DNA of 64,000 bases from an uncultured Lachnospiraceae bacterium. GTDB taxonomy: Bacteria > Bacillota > Clostridia > Lachnospirales > Lachnospiraceae. Position numbers and translations under genes: made by a program. Under the pieces are notes generated by a model. The model was not told where the DNA came from. It searched no databases and saw only the letters and a list, made by a program, of their open reading frames with translations. This document shows, one piece after another, positions 10,163 through 64,000 of the stretch. The stretch covers positions 1,953 to 65,952 of the forward strand of contig CAYOED010000006.1 of NCBI GenBank assembly GCA_964402925.1. The letters are read 5' to 3'. Positions within the stretch are counted from its first letter, which is position 1. Each line of letters starts with the position of its first letter.

Positions 10163-11134
10163 TTAAAGGCTCTCCATCGCCTTCAAAAACAAGTTCCTGA
10201 TAGCATCCCTTGGATAATTCCCAAGCCCTGCCACTTTATCCTGACGTATGAACCCGCCTGCCATAGCAGCATGTCCTCCTCCGTTCCCCAAATCAAGCAA
10301 TGCCTGATGAAGCAGGTTGCCTGCATGAATCTTTGGGTCCTCTGAGCGAACCGACAGCTTTATCCCATCCTCTCTATAAGAAAACACCACTGCCACTTCC
10401 ACTTCAACCAAAGCCAGAATAAAGTCCGCAAGAATTGCAATCAATGCATCCGGGCAGGAAAACGGGATGCAGGAAAAACCTGTCTTGTCGTACAGCTCAA
10501 TGCTTTCGATAGCGGCACCATATGCTCTCAAATCATCAAATTCCATATTATTGCGTTCCAGTCGTGCCAGCTTCTCATGGTCACAGAAAGGAAACAAAAA
10601 CCGGAACATCTCAATATCCAGCTCTGTCACGCCTCGTGAAAATTGCAGAGTGTCCATCTTTATACCATAAAGCAATGCTGTCGCTGTATCTTGATCCGGT
10701 TCATGCCCCATTTTAACATAATATTCCGCAATCAATGTAGCGCAGGCGCCGGTAATCCGGATATCCTGATATTTATACTCCATTGGAACAAAGGTAGGAT
10801 GATGGTCGATACATGCCACTTCATCTCCCACAAAATCCGTAACATTCCCACCGTGCTTCTGTGTGTCCACACATATGATATAGTCATCCTCTTTCATCTC
10901 CTGAAGCAGATCTGCATATGGATATATCTGCATCTGAAATGCATCCAGTAGTTTTGAAGCGCTCAGCTTGTCTATCCTGCCATCATAGCAAAGTTTTGAC
11001 TCCACACCATAAGCTTCCAGCAGTTTCTTCAACCCATATGCGGAAGAAATGGCATCCGGGTCTGGAAAGTTATGCGTCTGTATATAAACCCTGTGCCCCT
11101 GGCATAGCTTAACAAGTTCCATGAAATCACTCAT
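10163..11134 (-). CDS. DHH family phosphoesterase (NrnA-like)
   Basis: HNFPDPDAISS, the DHH motif (ACIDHHP) and a C-terminal GGGH (DHHA1) motif. Confidence 0.85.
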   Translation of the reverse strand: MSDFMELVKLCQGHRVYIQTHNFPDPDAISSAYGLKKLLEAYGVESKLCYDGRIDKLSASKLLDAFQMQIYPYADLLQEMKEDDYIICVDTQKHGGNVTDFVGDEVACIDHHPTFVPMEYKYQDIRITGACATLIAEYYVKMGHEPDQDTATALLYGIKMDTLQFSRGVTELDIEMFRFLFPFCDHEKLARLERNNMEFDDLRAYGAAIESIELYDKTGFSCIPFSCPDALIAILADFILALVEVEVAVVFSYREDGIKLSVRSEDPKIHAGNLLHQALLDLGNGGGHAAMAGGFIRQDKVAGLGNYPRDAIRNLFLKAMESL

Positions 11135-11280
11135 TTTTATTTCTCCTATCGTATATTCTGCAATAAAAGCAGATTTTCAGAAGAATCTACCAAACTTTTA
11201 CCGTAATTGTTCCTGTTTGAATCCTATCATAATTTTTCATTTTCTACAATCTTCATTTTCTGGAAACATGGCACTACGCG

Positions 11281-12780: not shown

Positions 12781-12840
12781 AACAATCTCCATCTTAATGC
12801 CACAAAATCAAATAACACTGCTATTCTACTCCTTCCATGC

Positions 12841-12875
12841 ATCATAATTGCATCCTTTTTGTATCATAATTGCAT
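12841..12875 (-). promoter_or_regulatory. two perfect 13-bp direct repeats with 22-bp period
   Basis: ATCATAATTGCAT at 12841-12853 and 12863-12875. The proximal copy overlaps the -35 position of a TAGAAT -10 (plus-strand 12823-12828). Confidence 0.4.
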
Positions 12876-12885
12876 AATACGGTCT

Positions 12886-13223
12886 GACCCAATGTCATTT
12901 ATAGAAGGGACCGCAGCTGCGGGGCAGATATCTCACTTCATCTGGCTGGACAAAAGTCTATGGCGGAGCCTTATGGAAAGCGATTAGAAGGACTTAACAG
13001 CCCATCCATTGCCCAGCAATCGACGGACAGGACGTCCGTCGAAGGCGTAACTTGACCCATGGATGGGTCAATACGCCGTTTGCGTCCGGTGCCAATTTCT
13101 GAACAAGGGCTGTTTAGTCCTTCTTATCGCTGTACATAGGATTCGCCATAGACTTTTGTCCAGCCAGATGAAGCGGGATATCTGCCCAGCGGCTGTGGTC
13201 CCTTCTATAAATGACATTGGGTC
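12886..13223. repeat. 338-bp long-hairpin (palindromic) intergenic element, family A copy 1
   Basis: About 117-bp arms, roughly 90 percent complementary, around a unique centre of about 104 bp. The core at 12969-13084 recurs at 58513-58628 and 58979-59093. Confidence 0.85.
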
Positions 13224-13234
13224 CAATCTCAACC

Positions 13235-15343: not shown

Positions 15344-15344
15344 T

Positions 15345-16136
15345 TCACATCCCTCCTGCAATCTCTTGATCTGATGCAACATCCATACTGCTCATTTTCC
15401 GGATAGCGTCAAGCAGACGATCCTGGAACTTAACTCTTTTTTCTTCCCTATGCCCCGGCGATGCCTTCAACGTGTCATAGACCACGCCGTCCTTAAGGAG
15501 AATGACCCTGTCACAAAAAGAAGCGGCAAAGCTGTCATGTGTCACCATGAATATAGAAGCACCCAATTTATTTCTGGCACTTTCAAAAGACTCAATGACC
15601 GCCCGGCTGGACTTGCTGTCCAGATTACCGGTAGGCTCGTCCGCAAGGATAAGAAGGGGCTGGTTAATCAGGCTCCTGGCTACCGCCGTTCTCTGTCTCT
15701 CTCCGCAGGAAACATCTACCGGATATTTTCCCGCAATATGGTCAATTCCGAAAAGAGACAATAACTGATCCGCAAGTTTTTCCGCTTCCCGGTCCACTTT
15801 ACCCTGAATGATTCTGGGAACCAGAATATTCTCCCTTATCGTCAATCCGTCGAGAAGCATGAAATCCTGGAATACAAAGCCAAGTTTTTCATTACGTATC
15901 TTTGCCAGAGCATTTTCATCAAGTCCTTTCAGCTCCTTTCCCCCTAAGGTGATGGTTCCCTGTTCAAAGGGAATATAGCAGGAAATGCAGTTGAGCAGCG
16001 TGCTCTTGCCGGACCCGGAAGGTCCCATAACTGCTACAAATTCCTGATTTGCGACGGACAAGTCAATTCCCTTAAGTACAGAATAAGACTTACTTCCGCT
16101 TTGATAAGATTTGTGAAGATTTTTTACATATAACAT
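15345..16136 (-). CDS. ABC transporter ATP-binding protein (BceA/MacB-like)
   Basis: Walker A GPSGSGKST, signature-like VSCGERQR, Walker B LILADEPT. Start ATG at 16136 (MLYVKNLHKSY) after GAGAGG. Confidence 0.9.
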   Translation of the reverse strand: MLYVKNLHKSYQSGSKSYSVLKGIDLSVANQEFVAVMGPSGSGKSTLLNCISCYIPFEQGTITLGGKELKGLDENALAKIRNEKLGFVFQDFMLLDGLTIRENILVPRIIQGKVDREAEKLADQLLSLFGIDHIAGKYPVDVSCGERQRTAVARSLINQPLLILADEPTGNLDSKSSRAVIESFESARNKLGASIFMVTHDSFAASFCDRVILLKDGVVYDTLKASPGHREEKRVKFQDRLLDAIRKMSSMDVASDQEIAGGM

Positions 16137-49394: not shown

Positions 49395-50945
49395 CTACTC
49401 CTCATCGAAGTTGATTTTCTTCTGTAGGACATCCTCAAACTCCTCTATCATTTCAGCAGAGGGCGCAGGTGTTACCAAGCTTACGATTATAATAGCCAAT
49501 ACGCTTACTGCAAATCCTACTGCCAATGAGTAAAGTCCCGTAAAGCTTCCCAAAGTCTGTCCCTGAACAAGGGGGATGTAATCCCATATGATTACAGTGA
49601 GGGCTCCTGATGCGATACCTGCAACTGCTCCAGAGAAGTTGGTGCGTTTCCAGTAAAGGGAAAGAAGCACTGTGGGACCAAAAGCAGCTCCAAGACCTGC
49701 CCACGCATTAGATACAAGTCCCATGATAGAACTGTTGGGATCAAGAGCAATCAGATATGCAAGAACCGCAATGACAAGTACGGTAATACGGCTGATTCTG
49801 AACACTGTCTTTTCAGATGCATCTTTCTTGATAATTCCTTTGAATATATCCTCCGCCACGCTGGATGCACTGACAAGAAGCTGTGAATCCGCCGTGGACA
49901 TGATCGCGGCCAGAATACCGCACAGGAAAATTCCCGCGATAATCGGAAGTCTTACATCTTCCGTAAATAGTTTGATGATCATGTTGATAAATACCTTTTC
50001 TTCTTCTCCGCCGGTAAGAACGGTAGGATAAAGGTAAGCACGTCCTACCACACCGATCACCCAGGCAAGCACCAAAGAAAGGAATACCCAGACGATAGCA
50101 ATCCCTTTGGATTTATTTAACTCTTTTTCATTCTTAACTGCCATAAAGCGTACCAGAATATGAGGCATACCGCAATAGCCCAGTCCCCATGCAAGCCCTG
50201 ATATAATATCTACTGCACGGTAGGTTTCACCGCCATTGCTGAATAAGCTTAAGAAAGCCTGCGAACCGCCGGCTACGCCGCTCATTTCTATATTAGAAAG
50301 GACACTGCCAGCACCAATAATGCCAAGTGCCACAAGCGGAACTGCCAAAAGTGCTACAAGCATGAGCGTTCCCTGAATAAAATCGGTAGTACACACTGCC
50401 ATGAATCCGCCCAGGAACGTATAGACCAATATGACGATTGCTCCAATGGTCAGGGCAATCTTATAATCCACACCAAATACCGAATTGAACAATTTGCCGC
50501 CTGCTGCCAGCGCTGACGCTGTATATACCAGGAAAAATATTACGATTGTTATCGATGAAATAAAAAGCAGAATTCTCTTTTTATCATGAAATCTGTTTTC
50601 AAAGTAGGTCGGAAGGGTCAGCGCGTTATTTGCGCGGATCGTATATCTGCGAAGACGTCCCGCAATAAAAAGCCAGTTGAACACCGTTCCTATAAACAGT
50701 CCGATTGCAATCCATGCCTGTCCTGTTCCTAACGCATAAATAGAACCCGGAAGTCCCATCAGAAGCCATCCGCTCATATCCGAAGCCTGTGCAGATAAAG
50801 CTGCCACCCATCCACCAAGCTTTCTGCCACCGAGGAAATAATCCTCCGTACTGCTATTTTTCTTTGCATACATTGCCCCTACTCCAACCATGAGCAGGAG
50901 ATAAAGGGCAAATGCAACAATAATCCATCCTATTGAATCACTCAT
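49395..50945 (-). CDS. putP: sodium:proline symporter
   Basis: Start ATG at 50945 (MSDSIGWIIVAF) after GGAGGA. SSF-family sequence (YFLGGRKLGGWVAALSAQASDMSGWLLMGLPG). Confidence 0.9.
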   Translation of the reverse strand: MSDSIGWIIVAFALYLLLMVGVGAMYAKKNSSTEDYFLGGRKLGGWVAALSAQASDMSGWLLMGLPGSIYALGTGQAWIAIGLFIGTVFNWLFIAGRLRRYTIRANNALTLPTYFENRFHDKKRILLFISSITIVIFFLVYTASALAAGGKLFNSVFGVDYKIALTIGAIVILVYTFLGGFMAVCTTDFIQGTLMLVALLAVPLVALGIIGAGSVLSNIEMSGVAGGSQAFLSLFSNGGETYRAVDIISGLAWGLGYCGMPHILVRFMAVKNEKELNKSKGIAIVWVFLSLVLAWVIGVVGRAYLYPTVLTGGEEEKVFINMIIKLFTEDVRLPIIAGIFLCGILAAIMSTADSQLLVSASSVAEDIFKGIIKKDASEKTVFRISRITVLVIAVLAYLIALDPNSSIMGLVSNAWAGLGAAFGPTVLLSLYWKRTNFSGAVAGIASGALTVIIWDYIPLVQGQTLGSFTGLYSLAVGFAVSVLAIIIVSLVTPAPSAEMIEEFEDVLQKKINFDEE

Positions 50946-51116
50946 TTTTCTCCTCCGTTCCAATGCGCATTTCCATTCTCTTTGCTCTGCTGCTTAGCGC
51001 ATTTCTTATATACTATATATGAGCAGCCCTTATCAGTCAACCCAAAATTTGCCACGACACTGTATAGCCAAAAACAAATGCATCATACCAAGATACATCT
51101 TCCTATAAAATCAGGA

Positions 51117-51138
51117 AAGGGTGTAGATTCACACCCTT
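51117..51138. terminator. hairpin at the 3' end of the GGDEF gene
   Basis: Stem AAGGGTGT 51117-51124 / ACACCCTT 51131-51138. T6 on the plus side and a weaker T-rich tract on the minus side. Confidence 0.45.
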
Positions 51139-51145
51139 CCCTTTT

Positions 51146-54100
51146 TTAATCTGAATATTTCACATCTCCCTTTGTGGAGTGCTTAATCATATAAAGCACC
51201 TCGTCCGCTTTCGAGATTGTTTCTGCAATCTCATCATCACTCGTAATCCCTCTCATGGCTGCTATTCCAATGGAACAGGACAATTCTTTTTCCTCGGGAA
51301 TGACCACCTCTTTTTCTTCCATCTCTGCAATGATATCCGCAAATCCCTTTCTTTCTCTAATTGTATTAAGGATACTCCTTCCAATCGCCAATGCCCTTTC
51401 CTTATCCACAAATTTTAGGCTGATTAAGAATTCATCGCCGCCATATCTGGCTGCAAATCCGCTATTCCCTGATACCTGGCGCAGAATTTCCGCCACCTCT
51501 TTTAAGATCCGGTCCCCTGCCGCATGCCCAAAGGTGTCATTGTAATATTTAAAATTATCCAGATCTATATAGAGGAACGTAATATCCTGTGTTACGCGCC
51601 TTTCTACCCATCCTTTGATTGTCTGGTAAAAACCCTCCCTGTTGTACAGAGCCGTCAGATAATCCGTAATTGCTGCTCTTTCCAGACTGCTGTTAATACA
51701 TCTGATTTGTTCTTCATTTTCCAGTTTTCCCACTGAATTCTGGAACTGCAAAAGTACCAGATTAAAAAATTCCATATCACTTTCATCCAGCATAAACTTC
51801 GTTCGAGGCGCATTCCAGTTATCCTTCATCATAATATACATAATAAAAACACTGTTTAATTTTTCGTCAGTATAATAAGGAAGGCATACCATGGAGCAGA
51901 TCTGCGTGATTCCAAATAACGAAATAATGCGATTGTACTCCATGTGATTCTTTTTTAATTTGGAGGTGACAAAACCGGAGCGATGAACAGAAAAATATCT
52001 GGTGATTTTCTCAATATCCGCCGCGCCCAAAGCCACCTGTTTTGTATCAAAACAGATATCCGGCTGTCCATCTTTATACCGGATATAAATCATGGAATCA
52101 ATACTGAAACTCAGCATAAATGAATTAAGTGCGTTTTGAACCAGATCAGTAAAGTTCTTTCCTGAAATATCAATCATTTTCTGCCAGGCTAAAACAAATT
52201 TCATCTGTTTTTTCAATGCCGCATAATCTTTAATAATTCCGGCCTGCTTTGTTGCCATCTGTATTTTCTGCAGCGTAATACCTGAAAGTTCCACCGCCTT
52301 TTTGTGATTCTGTTCATACTTCGTTCCCCGGCGCGCCGCTTCCAACATGCACCGCTTTTCGGAAACGCCGCACTGTTTTACATACCGGAGTCCTCTTTCA
52401 ATCACCGCCTCTGCTTCCTCGTATCTTCCAACCTTTTTTAACATTTCCGCAAGAGTAATCTCATATTGCACCATACTGAAAAATTGATATCCCGTGCTTC
52501 TTTCCACATAGATTCTTGCACTCTCCATATAAGCAAGCGCTTCTTCATATCTGCCCTTATCGCTGTCCATAAGTGCGCTGACATAATAATATAGAAAAAG
52601 ATCATCATCACATGACGTATATGACGAGTCAAGCTTTCTGTTTTGAATCTTTTCCTCTATTGGACGGCTTAAAATATGCCCTAAAAACTGAAGTGCATTA
52701 TCCAGATAAATCCGTGTGTCATACTTTCTTCCAAGCCGGTAAGAACAAAGCGCAAGAAGACCAAATATCTTTGAGATATTGCAGACTCGCAGATCATTCA
52801 AATGAAGTATATTAATAATTTTCAGACAACTTAACAGATAATTATATGCCGTCTCATTCTCACCTGCAAGCATACAGTTAATCGCCATGTTATACAGCGT
52901 TTCTCCTATATAATCCACTTTGTTCAGCTGAAAATAAATGGCAATTGCCTTATTATAATAACCGTTCGCCTCCTCATACTGCTCAGCGGCACAGCAATTG
53001 TAGCCCAGCCCATTATAAATATCCGCAAGCTTAAACGGATCCTTATCCCCCACTATCTCCATGGATTTATAGTAATAATGGTTGGTTACATGAAACAAAC
53101 CAAACAATGACGAAAGCATAATATTTTTTCGGTACGCAATAAGCAGAAGATTTTCGTTGCCATGCTTCCGTGCAATCTCTATTCCTTTTTTAAAATGGAC
53201 AAGAACCGATTCGTCCCTTTTACTTTCACCAATAAGCCTGACATCATTATCATATGCAAAAACGTATGTGTATGCCAGATGGTTTTCGTACCCATATCGC
53301 TTCGCCTGTTCAAAAAATTCCGGCGAAACATCAATATCTGTAGAACAAAAGAAAATATTATGCCAACCTGACATCCTGACCATCACTTCCAGAAGACTTG
53401 CCAGAAACTGATGATATCCGCTCAAATTCTTCCCTGCTACTTCCCTGCAGACGTCCGCACATTCCTTTGCCGTATTAAGATTGCCGCTGTACATCTGTAT
53501 CTGTCCAAACAAATAGTAATACCAGAATCTCTTTTCCACAGACTTATCTTTACTCGAAAGGAGATGGATATTATCACATAAGAGCATCGCTCTTGGCATA
53601 TCGGAATAGAGTGAAAGCAGAGCATAAAGCATATAGAATTTAAAGACACTATCCTCATCGACAGAAAGTCTTTCTACTTCAATTTTATGGTAAACAAAAG
53701 CCAGATAATATTGCGCCTGTTCATAGTCCAACAGATAATACATATTGTGCAGCTGTATCAGATACTCTTCAATGGCGCTGTTCTCAAAACAAAAACAACT
53801 GTTTTCCTCTTCGACTTTAATTTCATCTCCTCCGCCGTTTACAACGTAATTATGATCCTCCAGCTTTTCCATCCAGCTCTCCCATGACTCCGCCACATGC
53901 GGCAGCTGGGAATGAAGTTCATTAAAGGCGCCATACACAAAAATGTTTCCATCCTCTTGCTCCATCAATTTCTGCAAAAGCAATACTGTGGATTTGGATG
54001 CAATATTCAAATTATCCAGCAGAAAAAGCATAGGATATTTTCTGGACAATCTTGTAAGTACATCAGCCATTGATTTCAGCATCTGCTGTTTTTCATAATC

Positions 54101-54472
54101 AATCTCATCCGGCAGGATTTCTTCCCTTCTACTATACACCAAGTCGCTTACTATATTTTCAAAAATGGATTTCTGCAATGAATAAACAGAAAATTGTGCA
54201 ATGAATTCCTCCGGAGTTTTATCGTTCTCGTAGGTTTCGTAAAGAAATCTGATCACGTCTATGAACGGTTCAAAGGCGCCTATCATCTTAGATGCGTCAA
54301 AGCGTTTAAAAAACACACAGAAATCAGGATGCTTTACTTTTGCTGTTTCTGCATCCTCATTTGTAATCGCAAACGTATTATAATGCTTTACAATCGTAAA
54401 TCGATTCCCCCGTGTTTCTCCTGTAAGGTTTCCCATCATCGGCGCAATATATGTTTCGTAATAAATCCCCAT
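51146..54472 (-). CDS. large TPR-containing diguanylate cyclase (GGDEF)
   Basis: Start ATG at 54472, 9 nt after AGGAGG. C-terminal GGDEF domain (DYLTALYNREGF...RYGGDEFLISL). The long helical-repeat middle region looks TPR-like. Confidence 0.85.
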   Translation of the reverse strand: MGIYYETYIAPMMGNLTGETRGNRFTIVKHYNTFAITNEDAETAKVKHPDFCVFFKRFDASKMIGAFEPFIDVIRFLYETYENDKTPEEFIAQFSVYSLQKSIFENIVSDLVYSRREEILPDEIDYEKQQMLKSMADVLTRLSRKYPMLFLLDNLNIASKSTVLLLQKLMEQEDGNIFVYGAFNELHSQLPHVAESWESWMEKLEDHNYVVNGGGDEIKVEEENSCFCFENSAIEEYLIQLHNMYYLLDYEQAQYYLAFVYHKIEVERLSVDEDSVFKFYMLYALLSLYSDMPRAMLLCDNIHLLSSKDKSVEKRFWYYYLFGQIQMYSGNLNTAKECADVCREVAGKNLSGYHQFLASLLEVMVRMSGWHNIFFCSTDIDVSPEFFEQAKRYGYENHLAYTYVFAYDNDVRLIGESKRDESVLVHFKKGIEIARKHGNENLLLIAYRKNIMLSSLFGLFHVTNHYYYKSMEIVGDKDPFKLADIYNGLGYNCCAAEQYEEANGYYNKAIAIYFQLNKVDYIGETLYNMAINCMLAGENETAYNYLLSCLKIINILHLNDLRVCNISKIFGLLALCSYRLGRKYDTRIYLDNALQFLGHILSRPIEEKIQNRKLDSSYTSCDDDLFLYYYVSALMDSDKGRYEEALAYMESARIYVERSTGYQFFSMVQYEITLAEMLKKVGRYEEAEAVIERGLRYVKQCGVSEKRCMLEAARRGTKYEQNHKKAVELSGITLQKIQMATKQAGIIKDYAALKKQMKFVLAWQKMIDISGKNFTDLVQNALNSFMLSFSIDSMIYIRYKDGQPDICFDTKQVALGAADIEKITRYFSVHRSGFVTSKLKKNHMEYNRIISLFGITQICSMVCLPYYTDEKLNSVFIMYIMMKDNWNAPRTKFMLDESDMEFFNLVLLQFQNSVGKLENEEQIRCINSSLERAAITDYLTALYNREGFYQTIKGWVERRVTQDITFLYIDLDNFKYYNDTFGHAAGDRILKEVAEILRQVSGNSGFAARYGGDEFLISLKFVDKERALAIGRSILNTIRERKGFADIIAEMEEKEVVIPEEKELSCSIGIAAMRGITSDDEIAETISKADEVLYMIKHSTKGDVKYSD

Positions 54473-54680
54473 GAAGCAGTACCTCCTGTCAGACAAACTT
54501 CCCCCTCTGCCAGCCTGCCATCCATAAATATCATATCACGAAAATGCACGGAATACTATAACAAATTGCTTTTATCTTTAGCCCAAAAGCATTTTTGCTC
54601 ATTTGAGCAAATTGACACTTTTATGGTTTTCAACGTATAATAATTATCATCAATCAACTTAAGAAAAAGGAGAATTTCAC

Positions 54681-55922
54681 ATGCCCAAAGTCACACCTTT
54701 TCAAAGCATCAGACCCATACCCGAACTGGCTTCCCGGATAGCTGCTCTTCCCTATGACGTCTATAATCGCAGGGAAGCATTATCGGAGATACAAAAGGAA
54801 CCTCTTTCCTTTTTAAAAATAGACAGAGCTGAAACCCAGTTTCCTGACGACGTGGACACCTATGATTCCAAAGTATACACAAAAGCAAGAGAACTTCTGG
54901 ACGCCATGATTTCAGAAGGTTCCTTTATAACAGAAGATGCGCCCTGCTACTATCTGTATGAACTGACCATGGATGACCGTTCCCAGACCGGCATTGTTGC
55001 CTGTTCGGATCTGGACGATTATCAGAACCAGTTGATCAAAAAACATGAGAATACCAGAGAGGACAAAGAACTTGACCGTATCCGGCATGTGGATGTGACA
55101 GATGCACATACCGGTCCCATTTTTCTGGTATACCGCTCTGTACAGGAAATCAACGATATTGTTACCCTTTGCAAAAAGGGATCTGCCCTCTACGATTTTA
55201 CATCCTCTGACAACATCACCCACCGGGTATGGTGCATTTCAGACCAAGCGATAATTACAAAACTACAGGAAATCTTTGCACAGATCCCCTGTACCTACAT
55301 AGCTGACGGTCATCACCGCTGTGCTTCCGCAGTAAAAGTGGGACTGAACCGTCGGAAGGCACACCCCGATTATACCGGTAAGGAAGAGTTCAACCGCTTT
55401 CTTTCCGTGCTTTTCCCAGACGATCAGCTTTATATCATGCCCTACAACCGGGTGGTAAAGGACTTAAACGGACGATCAAAGGAAGACTTTTTATCCGCTG
55501 TGGAAGCTGCCGGATTTTCAGTGGAATATAAAGGAGACGAACAAGTTTCTCCTGACAAAAAGGGGTGTTTCGGCATGTATCTTTCCGACGGCTGGTACCT
55601 GCTTACCGCCAGAGAGTCACTTTTATCTTCTGACCCGGTAAAGGGACTGGATGTTTCCATTCTGCAGGATAACCTCCTTGGTCCCCTGCTGAACATAAAT
55701 GATCCCAGGACAGATAAACGGATTGATTTTGTCGGCGGTATCCGCGGACTGAATGAACTGGAACGCCGGGTTTCCTCCGATATGACCGTAGCCTTTTCCA
55801 TGTATGCCACATCCATATCTGAGTTGCTTTCCGTAGCAGATACCGGTCTTCTCATGCCGCCCAAGTCAACCTGGTTCGAGCCAAAACTGCGGAGCGGATT
55901 ATTCATACATCGCTTATCCTAA
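54681..55922 (+). CDS. DUF1015 family protein
   Basis: 413 aa, with PFQSIRP...ALPYDVY...ADGHHR, typical of DUF1015. Confidence 0.8.
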   Translation: MPKVTPFQSIRPIPELASRIAALPYDVYNRREALSEIQKEPLSFLKIDRAETQFPDDVDTYDSKVYTKARELLDAMISEGSFITEDAPCYYLYELTMDDRSQTGIVACSDLDDYQNQLIKKHENTREDKELDRIRHVDVTDAHTGPIFLVYRSVQEINDIVTLCKKGSALYDFTSSDNITHRVWCISDQAIITKLQEIFAQIPCTYIADGHHRCASAVKVGLNRRKAHPDYTGKEEFNRFLSVLFPDDQLYIMPYNRVVKDLNGRSKEDFLSAVEAAGFSVEYKGDEQVSPDKKGCFGMYLSDGWYLLTARESLLSSDPVKGLDVSILQDNLLGPLLNINDPRTDKRIDFVGGIRGLNELERRVSSDMTVAFSMYATSISELLSVADTGLLMPPKSTWFEPKLRSGLFIHRLS

Positions 55923-55941
55923 AGTCAGATTTATTGTAGTA

Positions 55942-55983
55942 AAAGGCTGCTCACAACCTTCCTTTGTGTTGGGAGCAGCCTTT
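55942..55983. terminator. bidirectional terminator between DUF1015 and proB
   Basis: 11-bp stem AAAGGCTGCTC 55942-55952 / GAGCAGCCTTT 55973-55983, with A/T runs on both flanks. Confidence 0.7.
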
Positions 55984-56014
55984 ATCGAACTACAAGAATG
56001 GCTTACAAAATGAG

Positions 56015-56827
56015 TCATCCATTGCTTGATGCTTTAAATAAGGTACCTACTTCTTTTCCTTCTAAAATCCTGCTGATATTCACCACATCATCTCCATTGG
56101 CAATTACCATATCGACCCCTATCGCACCGGCAATTTCTGCCGCTGCAATCTTCGTCGCCATACCGCCCGTTCCAAAGGTCGTATCTGCTCCCTTTGCCAT
56201 GGCATACAATCTGTCATCTATTCTTTCTACACAATCAATAAACTCAGCTTTCTCATTATTTCTCGGATCATCTGTGTAAAGCCCGTCTATATCAGATAAA
56301 AGAATCAGCAGATCTGCTTGTACCAACTCTGCCACAGTTGCAGACAAAGTGTCATTGTCCCCAAAATTCTCATCCTGAATCTGGTCTGTGGAAACTGTAT
56401 CATTTTCATTTACAATCGGAATGACGCCCATGTTCAGCAGTTCCAAAAAAGTATTTTCTGCATTTTGTCTGCTGATTTCATTGGTCATAGTCCTTTTGGT
56501 AATCAAAATCTGGGCAATCGTCTGATTATACTCCGCAAATAATTTTTGATAAATCATCATCAGCCTTGCCTGTCCCACTGCCGCACATGCCTGCTTTTGA
56601 GAAAGCCGGCTGGGCTTTACCTTGATACCAAGCGCCTTCCTGCCCGCGCCGATAGCGCCTGATGAGACAAGCACAATTTCTTTATTCTGATTTTTAATAT
56701 CCGTCAGAACCCTTGCCAGTTTTTCCATTTTAAGCAGATTTAAATGTCCTGTATCTACGTGCGTAATCGTGGAAGTACCTATTTTTACCACAATACGCTT
56801 TTTATCTTTCAAAAACTCCCTGTTCAT
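56015..56827 (-). CDS. proB: glutamate 5-kinase (short form, no PUA domain)
   Basis: Start ATG at 56827 (MNREFLKDKKRIVVKIGTSTIT). Also VSSGAIGAG and IPIVNENDTV. The track GTG at 56848 is less likely. Confidence 0.92.
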   Translation of the reverse strand: MNREFLKDKKRIVVKIGTSTITHVDTGHLNLLKMEKLARVLTDIKNQNKEIVLVSSGAIGAGRKALGIKVKPSRLSQKQACAAVGQARLMMIYQKLFAEYNQTIAQILITKRTMTNEISRQNAENTFLELLNMGVIPIVNENDTVSTDQIQDENFGDNDTLSATVAELVQADLLILLSDIDGLYTDDPRNNEKAEFIDCVERIDDRLYAMAKGADTTFGTGGMATKIAAAEIAGAIGVDMVIANGDDVVNISRILEGKEVGTLFKASSNG

Positions 56828-56919
56828 TCTGTTATGTTCCTTCCTCACATCGTTACCATTTGACCTTCGCCTTCATTCTTCCCATCATACCATGATTGGT
56901 TGAAATTTCAATGGGTAAT

Positions 56920-58350
56920 TCATATAAATGGCAGATTCATATGTTCAAGAAACCGTTCCTTAAATGAATCCTCATCCGCCAGTTCCACATGTACAAAACG
57001 ACAGCTTTCCTCTTCCGAACTCTGCAATGCCTTTTCCGAAAGCAATGCCATTGCCGCCCCGGTTCCCGCCAAATTGCCTGCCTGCACCATTTTTTCTCTG
57101 GGAACGTCTGGGAATAGACCAATTGCAATACCGCTTTCAATGCTGATATAACATCCAAACGCTCCTGCCAGGTAAATTTTGTCAAGTTCATCCGCCTTTA
57201 TACCTGCTCTTTCAAGCAGGATCTCCATGCCTGATCTGATTGCACTGACTGACAACTGCAGCGCACGCACATCATCAGCCAGAATATAAACCGGATGCGA
57301 CTTGTCTGTAAGCAGAAACTTTCTCGTATCATCCATGGTTTCAATTCTCTTACATATCCTCTCCGGCACCCCCGCTTCCTTCGCTTCCTTTGCGCTCCGC
57401 ATATATCCGGTTTGGTCAAGAACACCAATACGATAAAGCTGCGCCAGACCATCCACCAGACCGGAGCCGCAGATACCCAGCGGATTTCCCCCTCCAATCA
57501 CCCTGCACACAATATCCTGCATGGGAAATCTTCCGCTTATGGAAACCATATCGACAGCGCCTGCTGCCGCCCGCATCCCCTGACTCACAGCACCGCCCTC
57601 CAATGCCGGACCCGCCGCTGCGGAACAGGCATATCTTTTCCCCCCGCACAAGAGAAGGATTTCTCCGTTAGTTCCAATATCCACCGCCAGTACTTTATTC
57701 CCCTGCGTCTTCCAGTTTACATAACTATTCACCGCCAACGCATCTGCTCCCACATAACCGCCTATAGGAGGCAAAATAATTACATCAGTATCCTTTAGGA
57801 ATTGAAATCCAAGCTGCTCCCCTTTCCTATAAAAGGTTTCTTTATAATCAGGCATAAAGGGTGCCCGGAACAAGCCCTCCGGTCTAATCCCCACCAGAAT
57901 TTCACACATGGCTGTGTTCCCTACGATGGTGACTTTCTGCACTTTCTTTCTGACAATATTCTCGGTATACTCCTGCTTAGAAAGTCGTCCCATCATACCG
58001 GCTGCCATCTCATCCAGCTTCCCGACCACCAGTTCCTGCATCTTTTCAAGTTTGTCAAGGCTCTCCATCGCCGCCTGTATCCTGCTGATGACATCTGCCC
58101 CAAAAGCTGCCTGCGGATTCGCACCGGTCTCCGCATCCAAAAGACTCCCTTCCTTTAAGTTCCATAGCATTCCCGCCAACGTGGTCGTTCCCACATCAAA
58201 AGAAATGCCCAGCCCTTCGCCTGGGTCTGTTGCAAATCCCTCTGGGAACTGCACCCTGATCTGCTTATTTGTATTCAGTTTCTGGAAAATTCCGCATCCG
58301 TTACAACTGATTCGCTTACATCCCGGACATTTATTTACTCTGTTTTCCAT
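56920..58350 (-). CDS. ASKHA-fold ATPase, DUF4445 (RACo C-terminal-like) protein
   Basis: FDVGTTTLAGMLW, AVDIGTNGEI and GSGL motifs of an actin-like ATPase. N-terminal CPGCKRISCNGC cluster. Confidence 0.75.
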   Translation of the reverse strand: MENRVNKCPGCKRISCNGCGIFQKLNTNKQIRVQFPEGFATDPGEGLGISFDVGTTTLAGMLWNLKEGSLLDAETGANPQAAFGADVISRIQAAMESLDKLEKMQELVVGKLDEMAAGMMGRLSKQEYTENIVRKKVQKVTIVGNTAMCEILVGIRPEGLFRAPFMPDYKETFYRKGEQLGFQFLKDTDVIILPPIGGYVGADALAVNSYVNWKTQGNKVLAVDIGTNGEILLLCGGKRYACSAAAGPALEGGAVSQGMRAAAGAVDMVSISGRFPMQDIVCRVIGGGNPLGICGSGLVDGLAQLYRIGVLDQTGYMRSAKEAKEAGVPERICKRIETMDDTRKFLLTDKSHPVYILADDVRALQLSVSAIRSGMEILLERAGIKADELDKIYLAGAFGCYISIESGIAIGLFPDVPREKMVQAGNLAGTGAAMALLSEKALQSSEEESCRFVHVELADEDSFKERFLEHMNLPFI

Positions 58351-58392
58351 AAATAGTCTCCTGTTCAGCTTGGGGTTATCTTAGTATCTAGG

Positions 58393-58689
58393 GGCGTGTG
58401 GGTGGAGCGGGGATGGGGGAGGCGGTTGCCGGAACGGCATTGTATCTATCACAAACCTATGTACAGCGGTAAGAGAGGCTAGGTATCCCTATGACAGGCG
58501 CATCATGGAGGACGCAAACGGCGTATTGGTCCATCCATGGACCAAGTTACGCCTTTGGCGGACTTCCTGTCCGCCAATTGCTGGATTTTCAAAGGGATAC
58601 CAAGTCTCTCTAACCGCTTCCCATAAGGTCCGTGATAGATACAATGCCGTTCCGGCAACCGCCTCCCCCATCCCCGCTCCACCCACACG
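58393..58689. repeat. 297-bp long-hairpin element, family A copy 2 (inverted orientation)
   Basis: Perfect 59-bp arms 58393-58451 / 58631-58689, continuing imperfectly inward. The core at 58513-58628 is the reverse complement of the 12969-13084 core. Confidence 0.9.
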
Positions 58690-58895
58690 CTTCTCAGACG
58701 TAAAGCTATGCCTAACCTAAATTTTTTCTTGTCTGTCCTTACTCGGAGGCATCCTAGAGCTATTACGCTATTTATAAAAGAATACCACAAAATCCTTGCT
58801 TTTTTAACCAGATTTCTCTATTATCTAAAACAGAAGAATGAATGAGTGCATTAGGGCACTAGAAAATGGAGCGTCATTAGCATAGGCGCGTGAGA

Positions 58896-59115
58896 AGATA
58901 CAGTCAGGTCAAGGCAGGCGAGGGTGCACGGAACAGTAGACTGCTTCTAAGCTGCCCCTGCAATGCGTCTGTCTCAGACCTTATGGGAAGCGGTTAGAAG
59001 GACTTGGCATCCCATTAAATATCCAGCAATCGGCGGACAGGACGTCCGCCGAAGGCGTAACTTGGTCCATGGATGAACCAATACGCCGTTTGCCTGCCTT
59101 GACCTGAATGTATCC
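58896..59115. repeat. family A copy 3 (truncated) bounded by its own 16-23 bp inverted repeat
   Basis: TCAGGTCAAGGCAGGC 58904-58919 / GCCTGCCTTGACCTGA 59092-59107. The core at 58979-59093 matches copies 1 and 2. Confidence 0.85.
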
Positions 59116-59150
59116 CCCAAATACCATCATAATGAGCGAAAGGAAATTTT

Positions 59151-60011
59151 ATGTGGATAGCAGATAATTGGAAAGATTATGAAGTGATAGATACCTCCTG
59201 CGGTGAAAAGCTGGAGCGTTGGGGAAAGTATATCCTCCTTCGTCCCGACCCGCAGGTCATATGGAATACCAGTAAAGAAGCAAAAGAATGGAATCGTCTT
59301 AACGGTCATTATCACCGCAGTGCCAAGGGCGGCGGCGAATGGGAATTTTTTCAGCTTCCCAATGAATGGAGCATCAACTACCGTGAGCTCACCTTCCATT
59401 TGAAGCCTTTCAGTTTTAAGCATACAGGTCTTTTCCCCGAGCAGGCCGTGAACTGGGATTGGTTTTCACAGATTATCAAAAATGCCAATCGTCCTGTTAA
59501 GGTTCTGAATTTATTTGCCTATACAGGAGGGGCTACACTGGCTGCTGCGAAAGCCGGTGCAAGCGTCACTCATGTGGATGCATCCAAGGGAATGGTCACC
59601 TGGGCAAAGGAAAACGCTGCCGCTTCCGGTCTTTCTGATGCCCCCATACGTTGGCTGGTGGATGACTGCGTCAAATTCGTAGAGCGGGAAATCCGCCGCG
59701 GCAATACCTATGACGGCATTATCATGGATCCTCCCTCTTACGGAAGAGGACCCAAAGGGGAAATCTGGAAAATCGAGGACAGTGTCTATCCTTTTATCGA
59801 ACTGACCACCAAGCTGCTTAGTAAAGATTCCCTGTTCTTCCTCATTAATTCCTACACAACAGGCTTGCAGCCTGCCGTCCTTACCTACATGCTAAATACC
59901 ACAGTCGTCAAAAAGTTGGGCGGGCAGGTGGCTTCCTCGGAAATTGGTCTTCCCGTAAGCAGCAACGGTCTGATTCTTCCCTGCGGTGCTTCCGGGCGAT
60001 GGACTCACTGA
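59151..60011 (+). CDS. class I SAM-dependent methyltransferase (RlmI/RlmK-like catalytic domain)
   Basis: VLNLFAYTGGATLAAAKAGA (motif I) and IIMDPPSYGRG (motif IV). G+C is normal for this window. Confidence 0.75.
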   Translation: MWIADNWKDYEVIDTSCGEKLERWGKYILLRPDPQVIWNTSKEAKEWNRLNGHYHRSAKGGGEWEFFQLPNEWSINYRELTFHLKPFSFKHTGLFPEQAVNWDWFSQIIKNANRPVKVLNLFAYTGGATLAAAKAGASVTHVDASKGMVTWAKENAAASGLSDAPIRWLVDDCVKFVEREIRRGNTYDGIIMDPPSYGRGPKGEIWKIEDSVYPFIELTTKLLSKDSLFFLINSYTTGLQPAVLTYMLNTTVVKKLGGQVASSEIGLPVSSNGLILPCGASGRWTH

Positions 60012-60158
60012 CAGCACAATACCTATGAATATTACTAGATAAATTGAAAAGAAACCGTTTAATAAAAACTTGCGATGCGAAAAAAAGGTAAATACTTTTT
60101 TATTTGTGATTGTCTTTTTCTCTCTTTCTCTTTATAATAAAGTACAGAGGGTCTTATC

Positions 60159-63038
60159 ATGGAACATTTTACTGTTTTAAACTACCAAGGAAGTAAAAAC
60201 AGCCTAAGTAGCTTTATAAAAAAAAATATAGAGCCATATATACAAGATGGCAAAGCATTTTTTGACATTTTTTCAGGTTCTGCTGCTGTCAGTAATATTT
60301 TTAGAGATAATTATCAAGTTTTTGCGAATGATGCTGAACTCTATGCCTCTATAATAGCTGATGCTGTGCTAAATCAAGCAAATATAGATTCATCTTCTGC
60401 CTTGCTTCAATCTCTGGAAACAGAATATGCTGCTACTATTAAGGTGCAGGCAAAACCAATTTTAAATTTTATAAGCCATGAACAGCAAGCATTAAATGAT
60501 GAAAATTATGAGAAGTTAATCTCTCTTTATAAATCTTATCCAACCGTTTGGAACAATCAATATTCAGAAATAACCAGATGCACATTAAATGTTAATAATC
60601 TCAAAAAACTTAATGATTTTTATTTATTTACAACATATTATGCAACTAATTACTATGGCATTATTCAAGCACTTGATATTGATTGTCTCATCAAAATAAT
60701 TAATTTAAGCTTTGCACGTTATAAGAATACTTTGCTTGCTTGTTTATTTTACGCAATGAAAGAAACAGTTTTTTCAAAAGATGGCCATATGGCTCAACCA
60801 CTTAGTCTTGAAAAAAATCAAAACCGTCTCTTTTCTCAACGTAAAAAAAATATATATGAATTATTTATCAAAAAATTTAAAGAATACCTATCCGTTCCAC
60901 TTTCTAAATTTTCTGGAAAGAACGCTGTATTTAATTCTAATTTTGAAGAATTGTTAGACGAAACATTTTTTTCTAATATAGGATTAGTTTATGCAGACCC
61001 ACCATATACAGACATGCAATACTCTAGATACTATCATCTGCTAAATGTAGCCGCCAAATATGAGTATCCTGCATTAACCATGACCAAAAACGGATATACC
61101 AAGGGCTTATATACCGAAGGGCGTTATCAATCAAAATTAAGCCAACGTGGTTCAGCAAAACAATCATTGGAAAACCTAATTAGCTTTTGTTCACGCACAC
61201 GTACCAACCTCGCTATCAGCTACGCATATCCTCAAAATAGAGAACAGCAAGCCACAGATAGATATACAATCTCCATTGATGAATTGATTGAACTTGCTCA
61301 AAAACATTATACCAATGCTCGAGTCAATATAGCAGTTCAAACCTATAACCATGCCAACCATAGAAACAGCGAACAAAAAAAAGTTCTGGAATATTTAATC
61401 CTATGTGGTGATAAAAATTTGAATCAAGTTAATATAGATTCTCTAAAAAGAACTTTAGGCAACTTATCTCCAAGCAAAAATAACCCTATGTACAACTCTC
61501 ACATGTATTGGTCGCAAAAAGCTTTTAATATCTGTGATGCCTTAATTGATTCATTATCCAATAAAGGGAATATTGTTTTTGACCCTTTTCTCGGCTCTGG
61601 AGTAACAATACTAGAAGCCATTAAAACAGATTTATCTCGCTGCGCTATTGGTTGTGATATTAATGATATGCCGTTATTTATTTCAAAATTATTATTATCA
61701 GTTAATGCCACACCAACTATAAAGAAAGAGCTTGAACATTTTATACTTGAACTCAAAACTTTGGATCATTATTACGAAACCACTTGCCCCATATGCAAGA
61801 AAACAGGTACCATATCAAAAGTAATTTTCGACAAACCAGAAAGAACCGGTTCTGAAATTAAAATAAAAGCAATCAATTATACCTGTGAGTGTACAAGAAA
61901 AGGCATTAAATCCGCAGACGGAAATGACTATTTAAAAATGAATACTATACGGGCATTGAAAAACATCACCAACACTGATTTATTACACAACTCAAAAATT
62001 GCAGTAACTGAGAATGATGATATCAAAAACATATTTACCGGGCGCAACTTATCTGTACTAGATGAAATACTGACCATCATTAGCAAATATGAGAAAAGTT
62101 ATCAGAATATTCTAAAATATATCCTGATGTCGGTATTACATCTTTGCAAGATAACTGACAAACACTCAAATTCACAGTGGCCATTGTGGATACCGAAAAC
62201 CGATTGCGTTGAAAAAAACATTTTAGACGTTTATACTAAAAAAATTAAAAAATTTTACAATGTTATCCCTTTTATGAAAGAAAACTACAGTAATTCCGAA
62301 ATAGTTGAATCGTATGTTGATCTTTCTCCTGGTAAATGCTTACTAATGCAAAAGGGGAGCCAATTAATAACCGAGCAAGACATACCAAATAATGGCGTTG
62401 ATTTAATCATTACAGATCCCCCGTATTTGGAACAAGTCTTATATTCCGAATACATGCAGTTATATAAACCTTTTTTAAATCTGGATTACAACTTAGACGA
62501 CGAAATAATTGTATCTTCGGCACCTTCACGCAATAAGGACAAATGCAGCTATTTTGAATTGTTGGAACAAGTTTTTCATATGTGTTCAAACAAGTTAAAG
62601 CTTAACCATTTTTTATGTTTATATTTTCATGATAGCAGTTTAAATGTATGGGATAAATTAATTACTATTTTAGAAAGAAATTGCTTTAGATTTATTACTC
62701 AGATACACGTTGATAAGACAGTCACTTTAAAAAATATTATCAGTCCGAAAAAATCATTAAACGGTGACTCCATACTTATTTTTTCCAAAAGCGACTCTCC
62801 CATTGAACATAATGCCGAAGAAGATGTCTCTGAAATCGAACATAATATTATTAGGCAAGCAAAGTTTATGGTGAAGTCAAACGGCTCTTTATCCACTCCC
62901 GAATTATACGATAACGGGCTTATGGAAATTTTAATTCAAAATGGTTGGTTATCGAAACTCTCAAATAAATATTCTTCATTAGTTGATATTTTTGAAAAAC
63001 ATTTAACTTGGGACACCTCTACAGCTAAATGGAAATGA
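60159..63038 (+). CDS. fused double DNA methyltransferase (Dam-like D12 module plus permuted N4/N6 module)
   Basis: Module 1 has YQGSK..FFDIFSGSAAV (aa 35-44) and VYADPPY (aa 280-283). Module 2 has FDPFLGSGVT (aa 474-) and IITDPPY (aa 753-756), with a CxxC...CxC segment between them. Confidence 0.8.
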   Translation: MEHFTVLNYQGSKNSLSSFIKKNIEPYIQDGKAFFDIFSGSAAVSNIFRDNYQVFANDAELYASIIADAVLNQANIDSSSALLQSLETEYAATIKVQAKPILNFISHEQQALNDENYEKLISLYKSYPTVWNNQYSEITRCTLNVNNLKKLNDFYLFTTYYATNYYGIIQALDIDCLIKIINLSFARYKNTLLACLFYAMKETVFSKDGHMAQPLSLEKNQNRLFSQRKKNIYELFIKKFKEYLSVPLSKFSGKNAVFNSNFEELLDETFFSNIGLVYADPPYTDMQYSRYYHLLNVAAKYEYPALTMTKNGYTKGLYTEGRYQSKLSQRGSAKQSLENLISFCSRTRTNLAISYAYPQNREQQATDRYTISIDELIELAQKHYTNARVNIAVQTYNHANHRNSEQKKVLEYLILCGDKNLNQVNIDSLKRTLGNLSPSKNNPMYNSHMYWSQKAFNICDALIDSLSNKGNIVFDPFLGSGVTILEAIKTDLSRCAIGCDINDMPLFISKLLLSVNATPTIKKELEHFILELKTLDHYYETTCPICKKTGTISKVIFDKPERTGSEIKIKAINYTCECTRKGIKSADGNDYLKMNTIRALKNITNTDLLHNSKIAVTENDDIKNIFTGRNLSVLDEILTIISKYEKSYQNILKYILMSVLHLCKITDKHSNSQWPLWIPKTDCVEKNILDVYTKKIKKFYNVIPFMKENYSNSEIVESYVDLSPGKCLLMQKGSQLITEQDIPNNGVDLIITDPPYLEQVLYSEYMQLYKPFLNLDYNLDDEIIVSSAPSRNKDKCSYFELLEQVFHMCSNKLKLNHFLCLYFHDSSLNVWDKLITILERNCFRFITQIHVDKTVTLKNIISPKKSLNGDSILIFSKSDSPIEHNAEEDVSEIEHNIIRQAKFMVKSNGSLSTPELYDNGLMEILIQNGWLSKLSNKYSSLVDIFEKHLTWDTSTAKWK

Positions 63039-63049
63039 CGCCCTATAAC

Positions 63050-63078
63050 AAAAATGCGAGGTTCATCCTCGCATTTTT
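63050..63078. terminator. bidirectional terminator between methyltransferase and nuclease genes
   Basis: Stem GCGAGG 63056-63061 / CCTCGC 63067-63072, loop TTCAT. AAAAAT on the left and ATTTTT on the right. Confidence 0.75.
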
Positions 63079-63080
63079 GC

Positions 63081-63962
63081 TTATATTTCCTGAATTCCAT
63101 TATAATACTCCCCAGGAAAATGTTTGTTAAGACGTTGCATCAAATTTTTCCCATCAACGATTTCAACTTCTAAATCAACTGCAACTTTTCTACCATCTTT
63201 AGTATATCCGGAAGTTGTTACACAAACCGCATGATCCAACCCTCTTCTCATCCTTTCAGCATATAACCGCTGTATAGGATCCGATCCAACATTTGATGCC
63301 CAGCGTTTGCATTGAAATATATAGTGTAATATTCTACCTTGCTGACGCTTAGACGCAACAATATCAACTCCTAAATCACCTGCTCCCCCCATCTTGACAA
63401 CATTTTCATAGCCTTCTTCCTTCAATAATTTTTGAACCAAGATTTCAAATTCTGTGCCACTTAATGTTGATATGTCAACTGCGTTTTCATTTGGTTTACT
63501 AATATCCTTTCGTTCGACATAATACGGTCCATCTTTCTCACAGTAATTTGCTATCAGTTTTTCAATATCTCTTTGATGACTTTCATCTTCTAAAATCTGT
63601 GTAATAGTTTTTGGATTACCATCACACAATGCATTCACGAGTTCAAAATAGACATCTTCTAATATAAATTTCCCTTTACTATTTAATAACTGCCTGACAA
63701 AAACAGGCATCAAATCTAATAATTTGAAATATAAATCCGTTGTATCCTCAATATCTAAATACAATTGATTATTATCAATCTGTATACAACCGGCATCTAC
63801 CTTAAAATATCGTTCCAGCAATGCCTTTATGTGCAAGATATCTTCCTCACTTGCCCTGTATAAATATTTTGATTTCAAATCATTGCAAATTAACGTTACT
63901 GCACTTGTTAATGTCACATACTCTTTTGTATGAGTCAAGTATGAATAAACTTTTTTCACCAT
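63081..63962 (-). CDS. restriction endonuclease-like protein with C-terminal Mrr-type (PD-(D/E)xK) catalytic domain
   Basis: C-terminal GTEFEILVQKLLKEEGYENV..GGAGDLGVDIVA...IFQCKRW...VCVTTSGYT matches the Mrr_cat pattern. The ATG at 63962 overlaps the upstream gene's TGA by 1 nt. Confidence 0.75.
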   Translation of the reverse strand: MVKKVYSYLTHTKEYVTLTSAVTLICNDLKSKYLYRASEEDILHIKALLERYFKVDAGCIQIDNNQLYLDIEDTTDLYFKLLDLMPVFVRQLLNSKGKFILEDVYFELVNALCDGNPKTITQILEDESHQRDIEKLIANYCEKDGPYYVERKDISKPNENAVDISTLSGTEFEILVQKLLKEEGYENVVKMGGAGDLGVDIVASKRQQGRILHYIFQCKRWASNVGSDPIQRLYAERMRRGLDHAVCVTTSGYTKDGRKVAVDLEVEIVDGKNLMQRLNKHFPGEYYNGIQEI

Positions 63963-64000
63963 CAAAAACTCGTAGTTTTCATTCCCAATATACCAATATG
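63962..64000 (-). CDS. 3' end of an unidentified gene translationally coupled to the nuclease gene
   Basis: A frame open from the window edge reads ...HIGILGMKTTSF then TGA (63962-63964), which shares one base with the nuclease ATG. Confidence 0.4.
   Translation of the reverse strand, partial: HIGILGMKTTSF

Follow-up and report, generated by a model that had tools for sequence, protein, structure and literature searches.

A putative BtgZI-like restriction-modification cassette in a strain-variable defence hotspot of an uncultured Lachnospiraceae bacterium

BtgZI of Bacillus thermoglucosidasius is a restriction enzyme of Type IIC/IIS (GCGATG 10/14). In the passages on Type IIC enzymes in the review of Pingoud et al. 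(2014, PMC4081073), most enzymes of this type are described as having an N-terminal nuclease and a gamma-class methyltransferase, while BtgZI, which is listed among them, has an N-terminal alpha-class methyltransferase and a C-terminal nuclease of a PD-(D/E)xK variant in which E is replaced by Q; companion genes of BtgZI are not described in these passages. A literature search on the sequence, partners and structure of BtgZI found this one review sentence and otherwise only uses of the enzyme as a cloning tool. Three other kinds of system are relevant here: FokI with M.FokI, which combine a two-module methylase for an asymmetric site with a nuclease that has a separate C-terminal cleavage domain; Type IIG enzymes of the Eco57I, BpuSI and BspLU11III type, which are described, in the accounts of these particular enzymes, as a bifunctional restriction-modification (R-M) polypeptide accompanied by one or more separate methyltransferases; and the Type IV nucleases Mrr and MspJI. 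We compare these with a locus at the end of a 64,000-nt stretch of DNA from an uncultured Lachnospiraceae bacterium (contig CAYOED010000006.1, positions 1,953 to 65,952; called the window in what follows). Our reading, to which we assign a probability of roughly 0.8, is that the locus is a three-gene R-M cassette of about 6.2 kb, of BtgZI-like Type IIC/IIS design, which is foreign to its host and lies in a defence hotspot. The system is a member of an R-M kind that is already known but scarcely characterised.

The window ends inside the second gene of the cassette. The start of this gene was placed at 63965 by an open reading frame (ORF) program and at 63962 in a preliminary description of the window, and the frame, which encodes an Mrr-type nuclease, has no stop codon from 63965 to the window end. 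The exact 959-residue protein encoded by the first gene is found on three public contigs (L001 to L003). L001 is identical to window positions 50159-64000 (100% identity over 13,842 nt, with no mismatch), and because these 13.8 kb are identical it can validly be used to extend the window. The Mrr frame in L001 forms the last 305 codons of a single 794-residue ORF (12923-15307, minus strand). Beyond the window, a 158-residue ORF with predicted helix-turn-helix (HTH) motifs lies 5' of the 794-residue gene and overlaps it by four nucleotides (ATGA), which couples the two genes in translation. All three contigs carry the 794-residue ORF, the 158-residue HTH ORF and then a DUF2752 gene. The cassette therefore consists of three genes, occupying about 6.2 kb between two convergent host genes, which encode a 286-residue RlmI-like methyltransferase and a DUF2752 protein; its left two-thirds lie in the window. 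Its extent and its two main genes are as follows.

60012 to 64000, no strand: the part of the low-G+C island that lies in the window, from G+C contrast and a homology break
L001 about 9859 to 16120, ending at window-equivalent position about 66,270: the full island of about 6.2 kb, with homology breaks on both sides
60159 to 63038, plus strand: gene 1, the 959-residue two-domain DNA methyltransferase, from Pfam, PADLOC, homologues and AlphaFold2
63081 to 64000, minus strand: gene 2, the 3' part (residues 490-794 and the stop codon) of the R-M fusion gene, whose start is at window-equivalent position 65465, beyond the window
63486 to 64000, minus strand: helical middle domain of the fusion (residues about 490-660), preceded by the methyltransferase module and followed by the nuclease
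63135 to 63470, minus strand: Mrr-type PD-(D/E)xK nuclease domain of the fusion (residues 666-777), from PF04471, conserved residues and Foldseek
63444 to 63446, minus strand: candidate catalytic residue E674
63363 to 63377, minus strand: candidate catalytic residues D697 and D701
63306 to 63314, minus strand: candidate catalytic residues Q718-C-K720

The most informative protein is the 794-residue fusion. Pfam identifies PF01555 in its N-terminal part and PF04471 (Mrr_cat) at residues 666-777 (E 5e-24), and PADLOC matches MTase_II PDLC03319 to residues 38-558 and mREase_IV to residues 664-778. Methyltransferase motif I is at residues 62-68 and motif IV at residues 344-347, and the approximately 270 residues between them contain a Cys4 cluster, which gives the alpha-class order. 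In the AlphaFold2 model (predicted local distance difference test, pLDDT, 80.1; predicted template modelling score, pTM, 0.75) the inserted segment is predicted to leave and then re-enter one Rossmann fold. In 20 full-length relatives, with identities down to 25%, little or no variation is seen at D62, P63 and G66 of motif I, at the four cysteines C129, C130, C171 and C174, or at D344, P346 and Y347 of motif IV, and none is seen at E674, D697, D701, Q718 and K720 of the nuclease. The protein thus runs from motif I through a target recognition domain (TRD) to motif IV and then to D...Q718-x-K720, a succession that resembles BtgZI as far as the published description of that enzyme goes. Both elements of the description, the N-terminal alpha-class order and the C-terminal D...QxK, are present. 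On this architecture, the suggestion in the preliminary description that the system could be Type IIS-like appears to have been a good one.

Comparisons with better studied nucleases place the fusion between several groups. Searched against the PDB with Foldseek, the model has FokI as its best structural match (E 7e-5), followed by MspJI (E 2.6e-4), while a PDB search by sequence found no similar chain, and NCBIfam holds no model for the fusion system. FokI differs from the fusion in its helix-turn-helix-type recognition domains and in its catalytic D...D-T-K, and M.FokI has two D12-class modules, whereas in the methylase described below module 1 alone is D12-class. The nuclease domain is homologous to that of Mrr and MspJI (PF04471, D...QxK), but these Type IV enzymes are modification-dependent, recognise DNA through readers of the SRA-like or winged-helix kind, and lack a linked methylase. 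A Type IV Mrr-like identity was considered and is ruled out by the fusion to a methyltransferase module and by the strict linkage to a methylase. Compared with Type IIG enzymes (Eco57I or MmeI-like), the fusion has its domains in the opposite order and an alpha-class methyltransferase, which carries D(P/F)PY and in which the TRD follows motif I and precedes motif IV. A classical Type IIG identity is ruled out by this domain order and methyltransferase class.

The middle domain of the fusion (residues about 490-660) has no Pfam match. AlphaFold2 predicts that it is made of helices, with pLDDT mostly 70-94. Its mean pairwise identity between relatives is 0.20-0.27, compared to 0.36-0.42 for the other domains (excluding residues 1-35, at 0.17). 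A region-wise conservation scan for a hypervariable TRD gave modest differences, with residues 491-560 as the most variable internal segment.

The 959-residue protein encoded by gene 1 is predicted to carry two methyltransferase modules. Pfam finds PF02086 (D12 class N6-adenine methyltransferase) at residues 9-304 and PF01555 (N6_N4) at residues 363-503, and the PADLOC model MTase_II PDLC03319 matches residues 448-922. Module 1 (residues 1 to about 420) is D12/Dam-like and alpha-class. Module 2 (residues about 421-880) has the order motif I, Zn-ribbon/TRD, motif IV, and is followed by a helical tail. The motifs, all placed by alignment, are these.

60264 to 60278, plus strand: module 1 motif I, D36-I-F-S-G40
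60996 to 61007, plus strand: module 1 motif IV, D280-P-P-Y283
61581 to 61601, plus strand: module 2 motif I, D475-P-F-L-G-S-G481
61785 to 61886, plus strand: module 2 cysteine cluster C543, C546 and C576, between motifs I and IV and invariant in the alignment
62415 to 62426, plus strand: module 2 motif IV, D753-P-P-Y756

Homologues of the methylase are full length (958-997 residues, 49-98% identity). Across 21 of them, aligned down to 49% identity, D36-x-F38-x-G40 and D280PPY283 of module 1 and D475PFxGSG481 and D753PPY756 of module 2 are invariant, so that the two complete motif sets noted at the outset are both present. The protein thus has the intact catalytic motifs of a DNA methyltransferase, as a Type II R-M system requires. 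The AlphaFold2 model (pLDDT 84.5) consists of two Rossmann-type domains, and its Foldseek neighbours are tandem-methyltransferase proteins and the DNA N6/N4 methyltransferases CcrM, CamA and TTHA0409; a PDB sequence search with the protein gave no match. Residues 423-853 of the methylase align with residues 10-458 of the fusion (24% identity, E 2e-24), and the methyltransferase module of the fusion is a paralogue of module 2.

The fusion is not confined to this organism. There are more than 100 homologues of about 794 residues. Carriers of homologues include Petralouisia muris, Pseudobacteroides cellulosolvens DSM 2933, Clostridium tyrobutyricum, C. butyricum, Enterococcus dongliensis and Leuconostoc mesenteroides. 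Among the listed clusters at 50% identity, about 25 can be aligned over practically the full 794 residues; the family search gave 42 matches at E <= 1e-30 and 361 at E <= 1e-10. For an analysis of linkage one genome per species was scanned, which returned 58 full-length fusion homologues. A two-domain methylase adjoins the fusion in 52 of the 58, convergently in 33, divergently in 2 and collinearly in 17, and every one of these 52 methylases has a D12-like half and a half resembling module 2. The other six are at contig ends or are split matches. The hosts of the linked pair include Firmicutes, Gammaproteobacteria, Actinobacteria and Spirochaetes. Convergent loci have 42-85% identity and usually include the HTH gene; they are mostly from Firmicutes, with Gilliamella and Aggregatibacter as further hosts. 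In the collinear loci the methylase precedes the fusion, the identity is 26-30%, and there is no detectable HTH gene; their hosts include Photorhabdus (L055/L067), Cryobacterium (L066), Spirochaetia and Peptococcaceae (contigs within L055-L074). This distant collinear clade is different in its regulatory layout.

Apart from the methylase and the fusion, with or without the HTH gene, nothing in the neighbourhoods is conserved across the 58 genomes. The linkage of a nuclease gene to a methyltransferase gene, expected of a Type II R-M system, is therefore seen across lineages, and its retention over such an evolutionary distance is strong evidence that the methylase and the nuclease form a functional unit. 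The module had been called unusual, which is true to a limited degree: the description of BtgZI fits it, and representative genomes of at least 58 species carry full-length homologues.

The system is rare in collections of plasmids and phages, where it was found on two copies of an 882-kb replicon (chromid) of Clostridium butyricum and on one phage contig, and these collections give no sign that it is typically plasmid- or phage-borne. The phage contig, MT836948.1 (H3), is an unannotated 8.2-kb 'Bacteriophage sp.' sequence from human faeces, with a full-length fusion homologue of 83% identity; this contig may not be a phage but a piece of bacterial DNA that was mis-binned. Several chromosomal settings were also noted. 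In Clostridium tyrobutyricum (L006, 4803-6521) the pair is in a defence cluster, adjoined by, among others, a GmrSD_N gene (Type IV) and a regulator of WYL/HTH type; phage-like replication genes are found on its other side. In Enterococcus dongliensis it is in a conjugation and insertion sequence context, and in Pseudobacteroides it lies between toxin genes.

On the basis of these observations we hypothesise a mechanism in which the fusion most likely acts as a Type IIC/IIS cutter. The two modules of the 959-residue methylase would methylate two different strands of an asymmetric site, as does M.FokI, for which the logic of strand protection in Type IIS systems is established (PMC12707154). 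The methyltransferase module of the fusion, together with its Zn-ribbon TRD, would find the same or an overlapping site. There the target base would probably be flipped out, and one strand might be methylated. The tethered Mrr-type nuclease would then cut at a fixed distance to one side, and double-strand cleavage would need the pairing of two nuclease domains, as in FokI.

The third gene suggests how such a system might be regulated. The 158-residue protein has HTH matches to Phage_CI_repr (residues 10-72) and HTH_3 (residues 113-151). About 130-190 nt 5' of its ORF are two direct repeats of 31 nt, which are 84% identical and have 32-nt spacing.

L001 15907 to 15969, equivalent to window positions about 66065 to 66127: two 31-nt direct repeats, each with CATTTG...CAAATAG

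Similar tandem ...AAATAGTAC repeats are present 5' of the HTH gene in L027, L028, L034, L036 and L046. Beyond the repeats, L001 continues with a terminator and the 3' end of the host DUF2752 gene. The HTH protein may be a controller (C) protein that delays expression of the nuclease, although it is larger than classical C proteins.

The composition of the region marks the cassette as foreign. In sliding windows, the G+C content is 0.47-0.52 at 58-60 kb and drops to 0.26-0.38 from about 60.0 kb to the end of the window, with about 0.38-0.49 over the remainder. Overall it is 0.321 in 60012-64000 and 0.432 in 1-60011, and in any segment of equal size elsewhere in the window it is at least 0.395 (standard deviation 0.0175). 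This agrees with the sharp drop reported after the stop codon of the S-adenosylmethionine (SAM) methyltransferase gene, for which earlier counts by hand of G and C per 60 nt (35, 17, 11 and 20) were all exact on recount. At third codon positions, both island genes have a G+C of 0.27 and the adjoining 286-residue gene one of 0.53; for the whole cassette G+C is 0.33, compared to 0.49 in its flanks. Milder dips in G+C were seen at 51500-54500 (0.36-0.39) and at 1-2000 (0.376), the mean of the window being 0.43.

The borders are equally sharp. On the left, homology to a contig with a different allele (L004) breaks directly after the stop codon of the 286-residue gene and the bases CAGCA, at window position about 60017; this is 5 nt past the stop codon, and within 5 nt of the border at 60012 that had been proposed. 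On the right, homology resumes within the last 20 or so codons of the DUF2752 gene in L001. In L004, and also in L005, the flanks are 98% identical to the window, and the position of the cassette is occupied by an AbiD gene.

L004 1775 to 2782 and L005 3352 to 4359: AbiD, 335 residues, Pfam Abi_2 (PADLOC E 1.4e-65), G+C 0.37

Loci from related species were found by a metagenome scan with a degenerate pattern of the flank, an exact flank 27-mer having given nothing. In some the same convergent gene pair is separated by a gap of only 17 nt (L130) or 275 nt (L121), and in others (L101, L106, L115, L131 and others) the gap holds a membrane-protein gene of normal G+C. The protein encoded in this gap has 134-354 residues, with a long N-terminal region of low complexity rich in Q, N, Y and G and, at the C-terminus, a conserved membrane segment (...EEPVKISEWVL...MIPCVNIIMMFVWAFSSTEKKSKSNFFKAYL...).

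Since this site holds AbiD in other strains of the species and is empty in relatives, it is a strain-variable defence hotspot with three states, namely R-M, AbiD and empty. The cassette is horizontally acquired foreign DNA, as originally suggested; its foreign G+C and the AbiD or empty site in sister strains and relatives agree with this. Conservation with normal composition in all relatives, which would have argued for the opposite, is not what is found, since the site in relatives is empty or holds other cargo. As stated previously for the window, no integrase is present in its 64 kb, and none was found in the 2.8 kb past its end. Exchange would presumably occur by recombination in the flanks.

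Several points weigh against parts of this interpretation. The assignment to a BtgZI family is suggested by architecture and not by comparison of sequences; no source names any homologue of the fusion BtgZI, and a literature search for both of its Pfam domains together found nothing relevant. The fusion and its relatives of at least 74% identity have DFPY at motif IV where the consensus of the wider family is DPPY, and given this sequence it is uncertain whether the fusion retains methyl transfer. In a co-evolution comparison the methyltransferase module of the fusion gave 0.234 with module 2 of its own partner and 0.232 with those of other loci, and the ranks of own partners among 20 were scattered, which has no bearing either way on a shared specificity. 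The HTH protein is probably a controller, to judge from its gene position, the gene overlap and one pair of repeats, but an HTH homologue is not detectable in 7 of the 33 convergent loci or in any of the 17 collinear ones, and the repeat motif is suggestive in five or six loci and undetected in most others.

Among the alternatives, the one that survives best, though we think it unlikely, is that the fusion is a plain Type IIS endonuclease, in which a dead methyltransferase-like module does nothing but read DNA and the 959-residue methylase gives protection. The passage that describes BtgZI places it in Type IIC, the type of the combined enzymes (PMC4081073). The conservation of D62, P63, G66, D344, P346 and Y347 down to 25% identity also speaks against a dead module, as it implies selection for SAM binding or base flipping. 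What this alternative does account for is the DFPY of the local clade; in addition, the two modules of the companion methylase suffice for both strands, and loops beside the catalytic motifs of the fusion (residues 348-357, for example) are poorly modelled.

It is worth adding that Type II R-M systems can behave as addiction modules. The main role of the cassette could accordingly be that of a selfish addiction module or of an epigenetic regulator and not phage defence, and its occurrence in unrelated contexts, including DNA resembling a conjugative element in Enterococcus and the chromid of C. butyricum, would suit this. We regard it as improbable, since the cassette shares its site with AbiD in sister strains and lies beside GmrSD in C. 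tyrobutyricum, which is the setting of a defence island; in any case, addiction and defence roles can coexist.

The preliminary description proposed a convergent operon ending in a separate 293-residue Mrr nuclease gene, joined through a TGATG overlap to a gene 5' of it that the window edge truncates. Read in this way, the locus would hold an Mrr-family, Type IV-like modification-dependent nuclease and an unseen upstream gene beside an independent methyltransferase. The last 294 codons do match PF04471 Mrr_cat and PADLOC mREase_IV / PDC-S02, and a TGA overlapping an ATG is indeed present at 63960-63964. Nevertheless the frame reaches the window edge without a stop codon and continues as the 794-residue ORF in the identical contigs; the stretch of L001 that holds this gene contains no other ORF of at least 80 residues, and the 13-codon frame of the supposed upstream gene leads to no ORF of that size in the extension. 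More than 100 homologues of about 794 residues align end to end, and an exact look-up of the 293-residue product found nothing on record. Moreover, if a methyl-dependent nuclease were in strict linkage with an active methylase, it would damage its own host. The TGATG is a chance out-of-frame TGA, and the 293-residue gene is an artefact of the window edge; the true overlap, the ATGA already mentioned, is 1.3 kb past the window end. The genes are convergent as proposed, but the small nuclease is the C-terminal domain of the fusion, and its existence as a separate gene is very improbable.

Finally, a larger system of BREX, DISARM or MADS type running on past 64 kb, for which one could cite the partial PADLOC match of the methylase to PglXI (E 1e-23) and weak matches of the fusion to mad2 (PADLOC) and DUF1156_antiphage (NCBIfam), can hardly be entertained, as these PADLOC matches are limited to the methyltransferase core, only the methylase and fusion pair is conserved across the 58 genomes, and the extension holds just the rest of the fusion and the 158-residue HTH gene, so that the multi-gene system once envisaged ends about 2.3 kb on, after one more small gene, at the host DUF2752.

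The preferred reading, of a BtgZI-like R-M cassette, has consequences for annotation and for the search for enzymes. Automated tools split the system into a 'Type II methyltransferase' and a 'Type IV methyl-directed restriction enzyme' or 'DUF2034'. The recorded names of ten diverse representatives of the family are all generic, such as 'restriction endonuclease' and 'DNA modification methylase/HJR/Mrr/RecB family endonuclease'. A systematic annotation error in gut Firmicutes is corrected once the fusion and the methylase, its obligate partner, are recognised as a single R-M unit. The BtgZI design has been represented by a single review sentence, with no solved structure, and the family assembled here supplies many candidates for new Type IIS specificities.

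More tentatively, and at somewhat less than even odds, the fusion family may be a distinct combined R-M class with no solved structure, made up of an alpha-class reader, a Zn-ribbon TRD, an Mrr nuclease tethered in the manner of FokI, and an invariable two-module methylase partner. If this is true, its members may recognise sites other than that of BtgZI, and might thus be new Type IIS cutters that produce 5' overhangs of 4 nt; the family would also be a test case for three methyltransferase modules sharing one asymmetric site. The locus itself is a clean example of a three-state defence hotspot between conserved host genes with no integrase. As a bacterial defence island it is of an ordinary kind, useful for annotation and enzyme discovery and unsurprising to a specialist.

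Two further features may bear on expression of the cassette.

60110 to 60138, plus strand: promoter-like site TTGTCT-17-TATAAT for the methylase gene, 10 of 12 in a consensus scan
63049 to 63079, both strands: bidirectional intrinsic-terminator-like hairpin between the convergent genes

The promoter-like site is a match to consensus only, and such sites are no commoner in the region than in shuffled sequence. A ribosome-binding site, AGAGGG, is found a few bases 5' of the ATG of the methylase gene at 60159. The hairpin has a stem of 13 bp and folding free energies of -21.7 kcal/mol on one strand and -21.6 kcal/mol on the other (z -7.7 and -5.4); none of 200 shuffles folds as well, and there is a U-run 3' of it on both strands, which makes the earlier reading as a bidirectional terminator a fair one.

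Two hairpin elements at 58.4-59.1 kb had been noted just upstream of the island. They are present, but they match the Rfam family RF01731, TwoAYGGAY RNA, and are not parts of the island, lying outside it in a gap of 800 nt between a RACo-like gene and the 286-residue methyltransferase gene.

58458 to 58625, minus strand: TwoAYGGAY RNA, full length, 108 bits (gathering score 43)
59025 to 59093, plus strand: TwoAYGGAY RNA, partial (model positions 44-113), 46 bits

The full-length copy is overlapped by a long imperfect palindrome at 58394-58690, which is about 80% identical to its reverse complement over some 300 nt, and the same arrangement is seen in L005.

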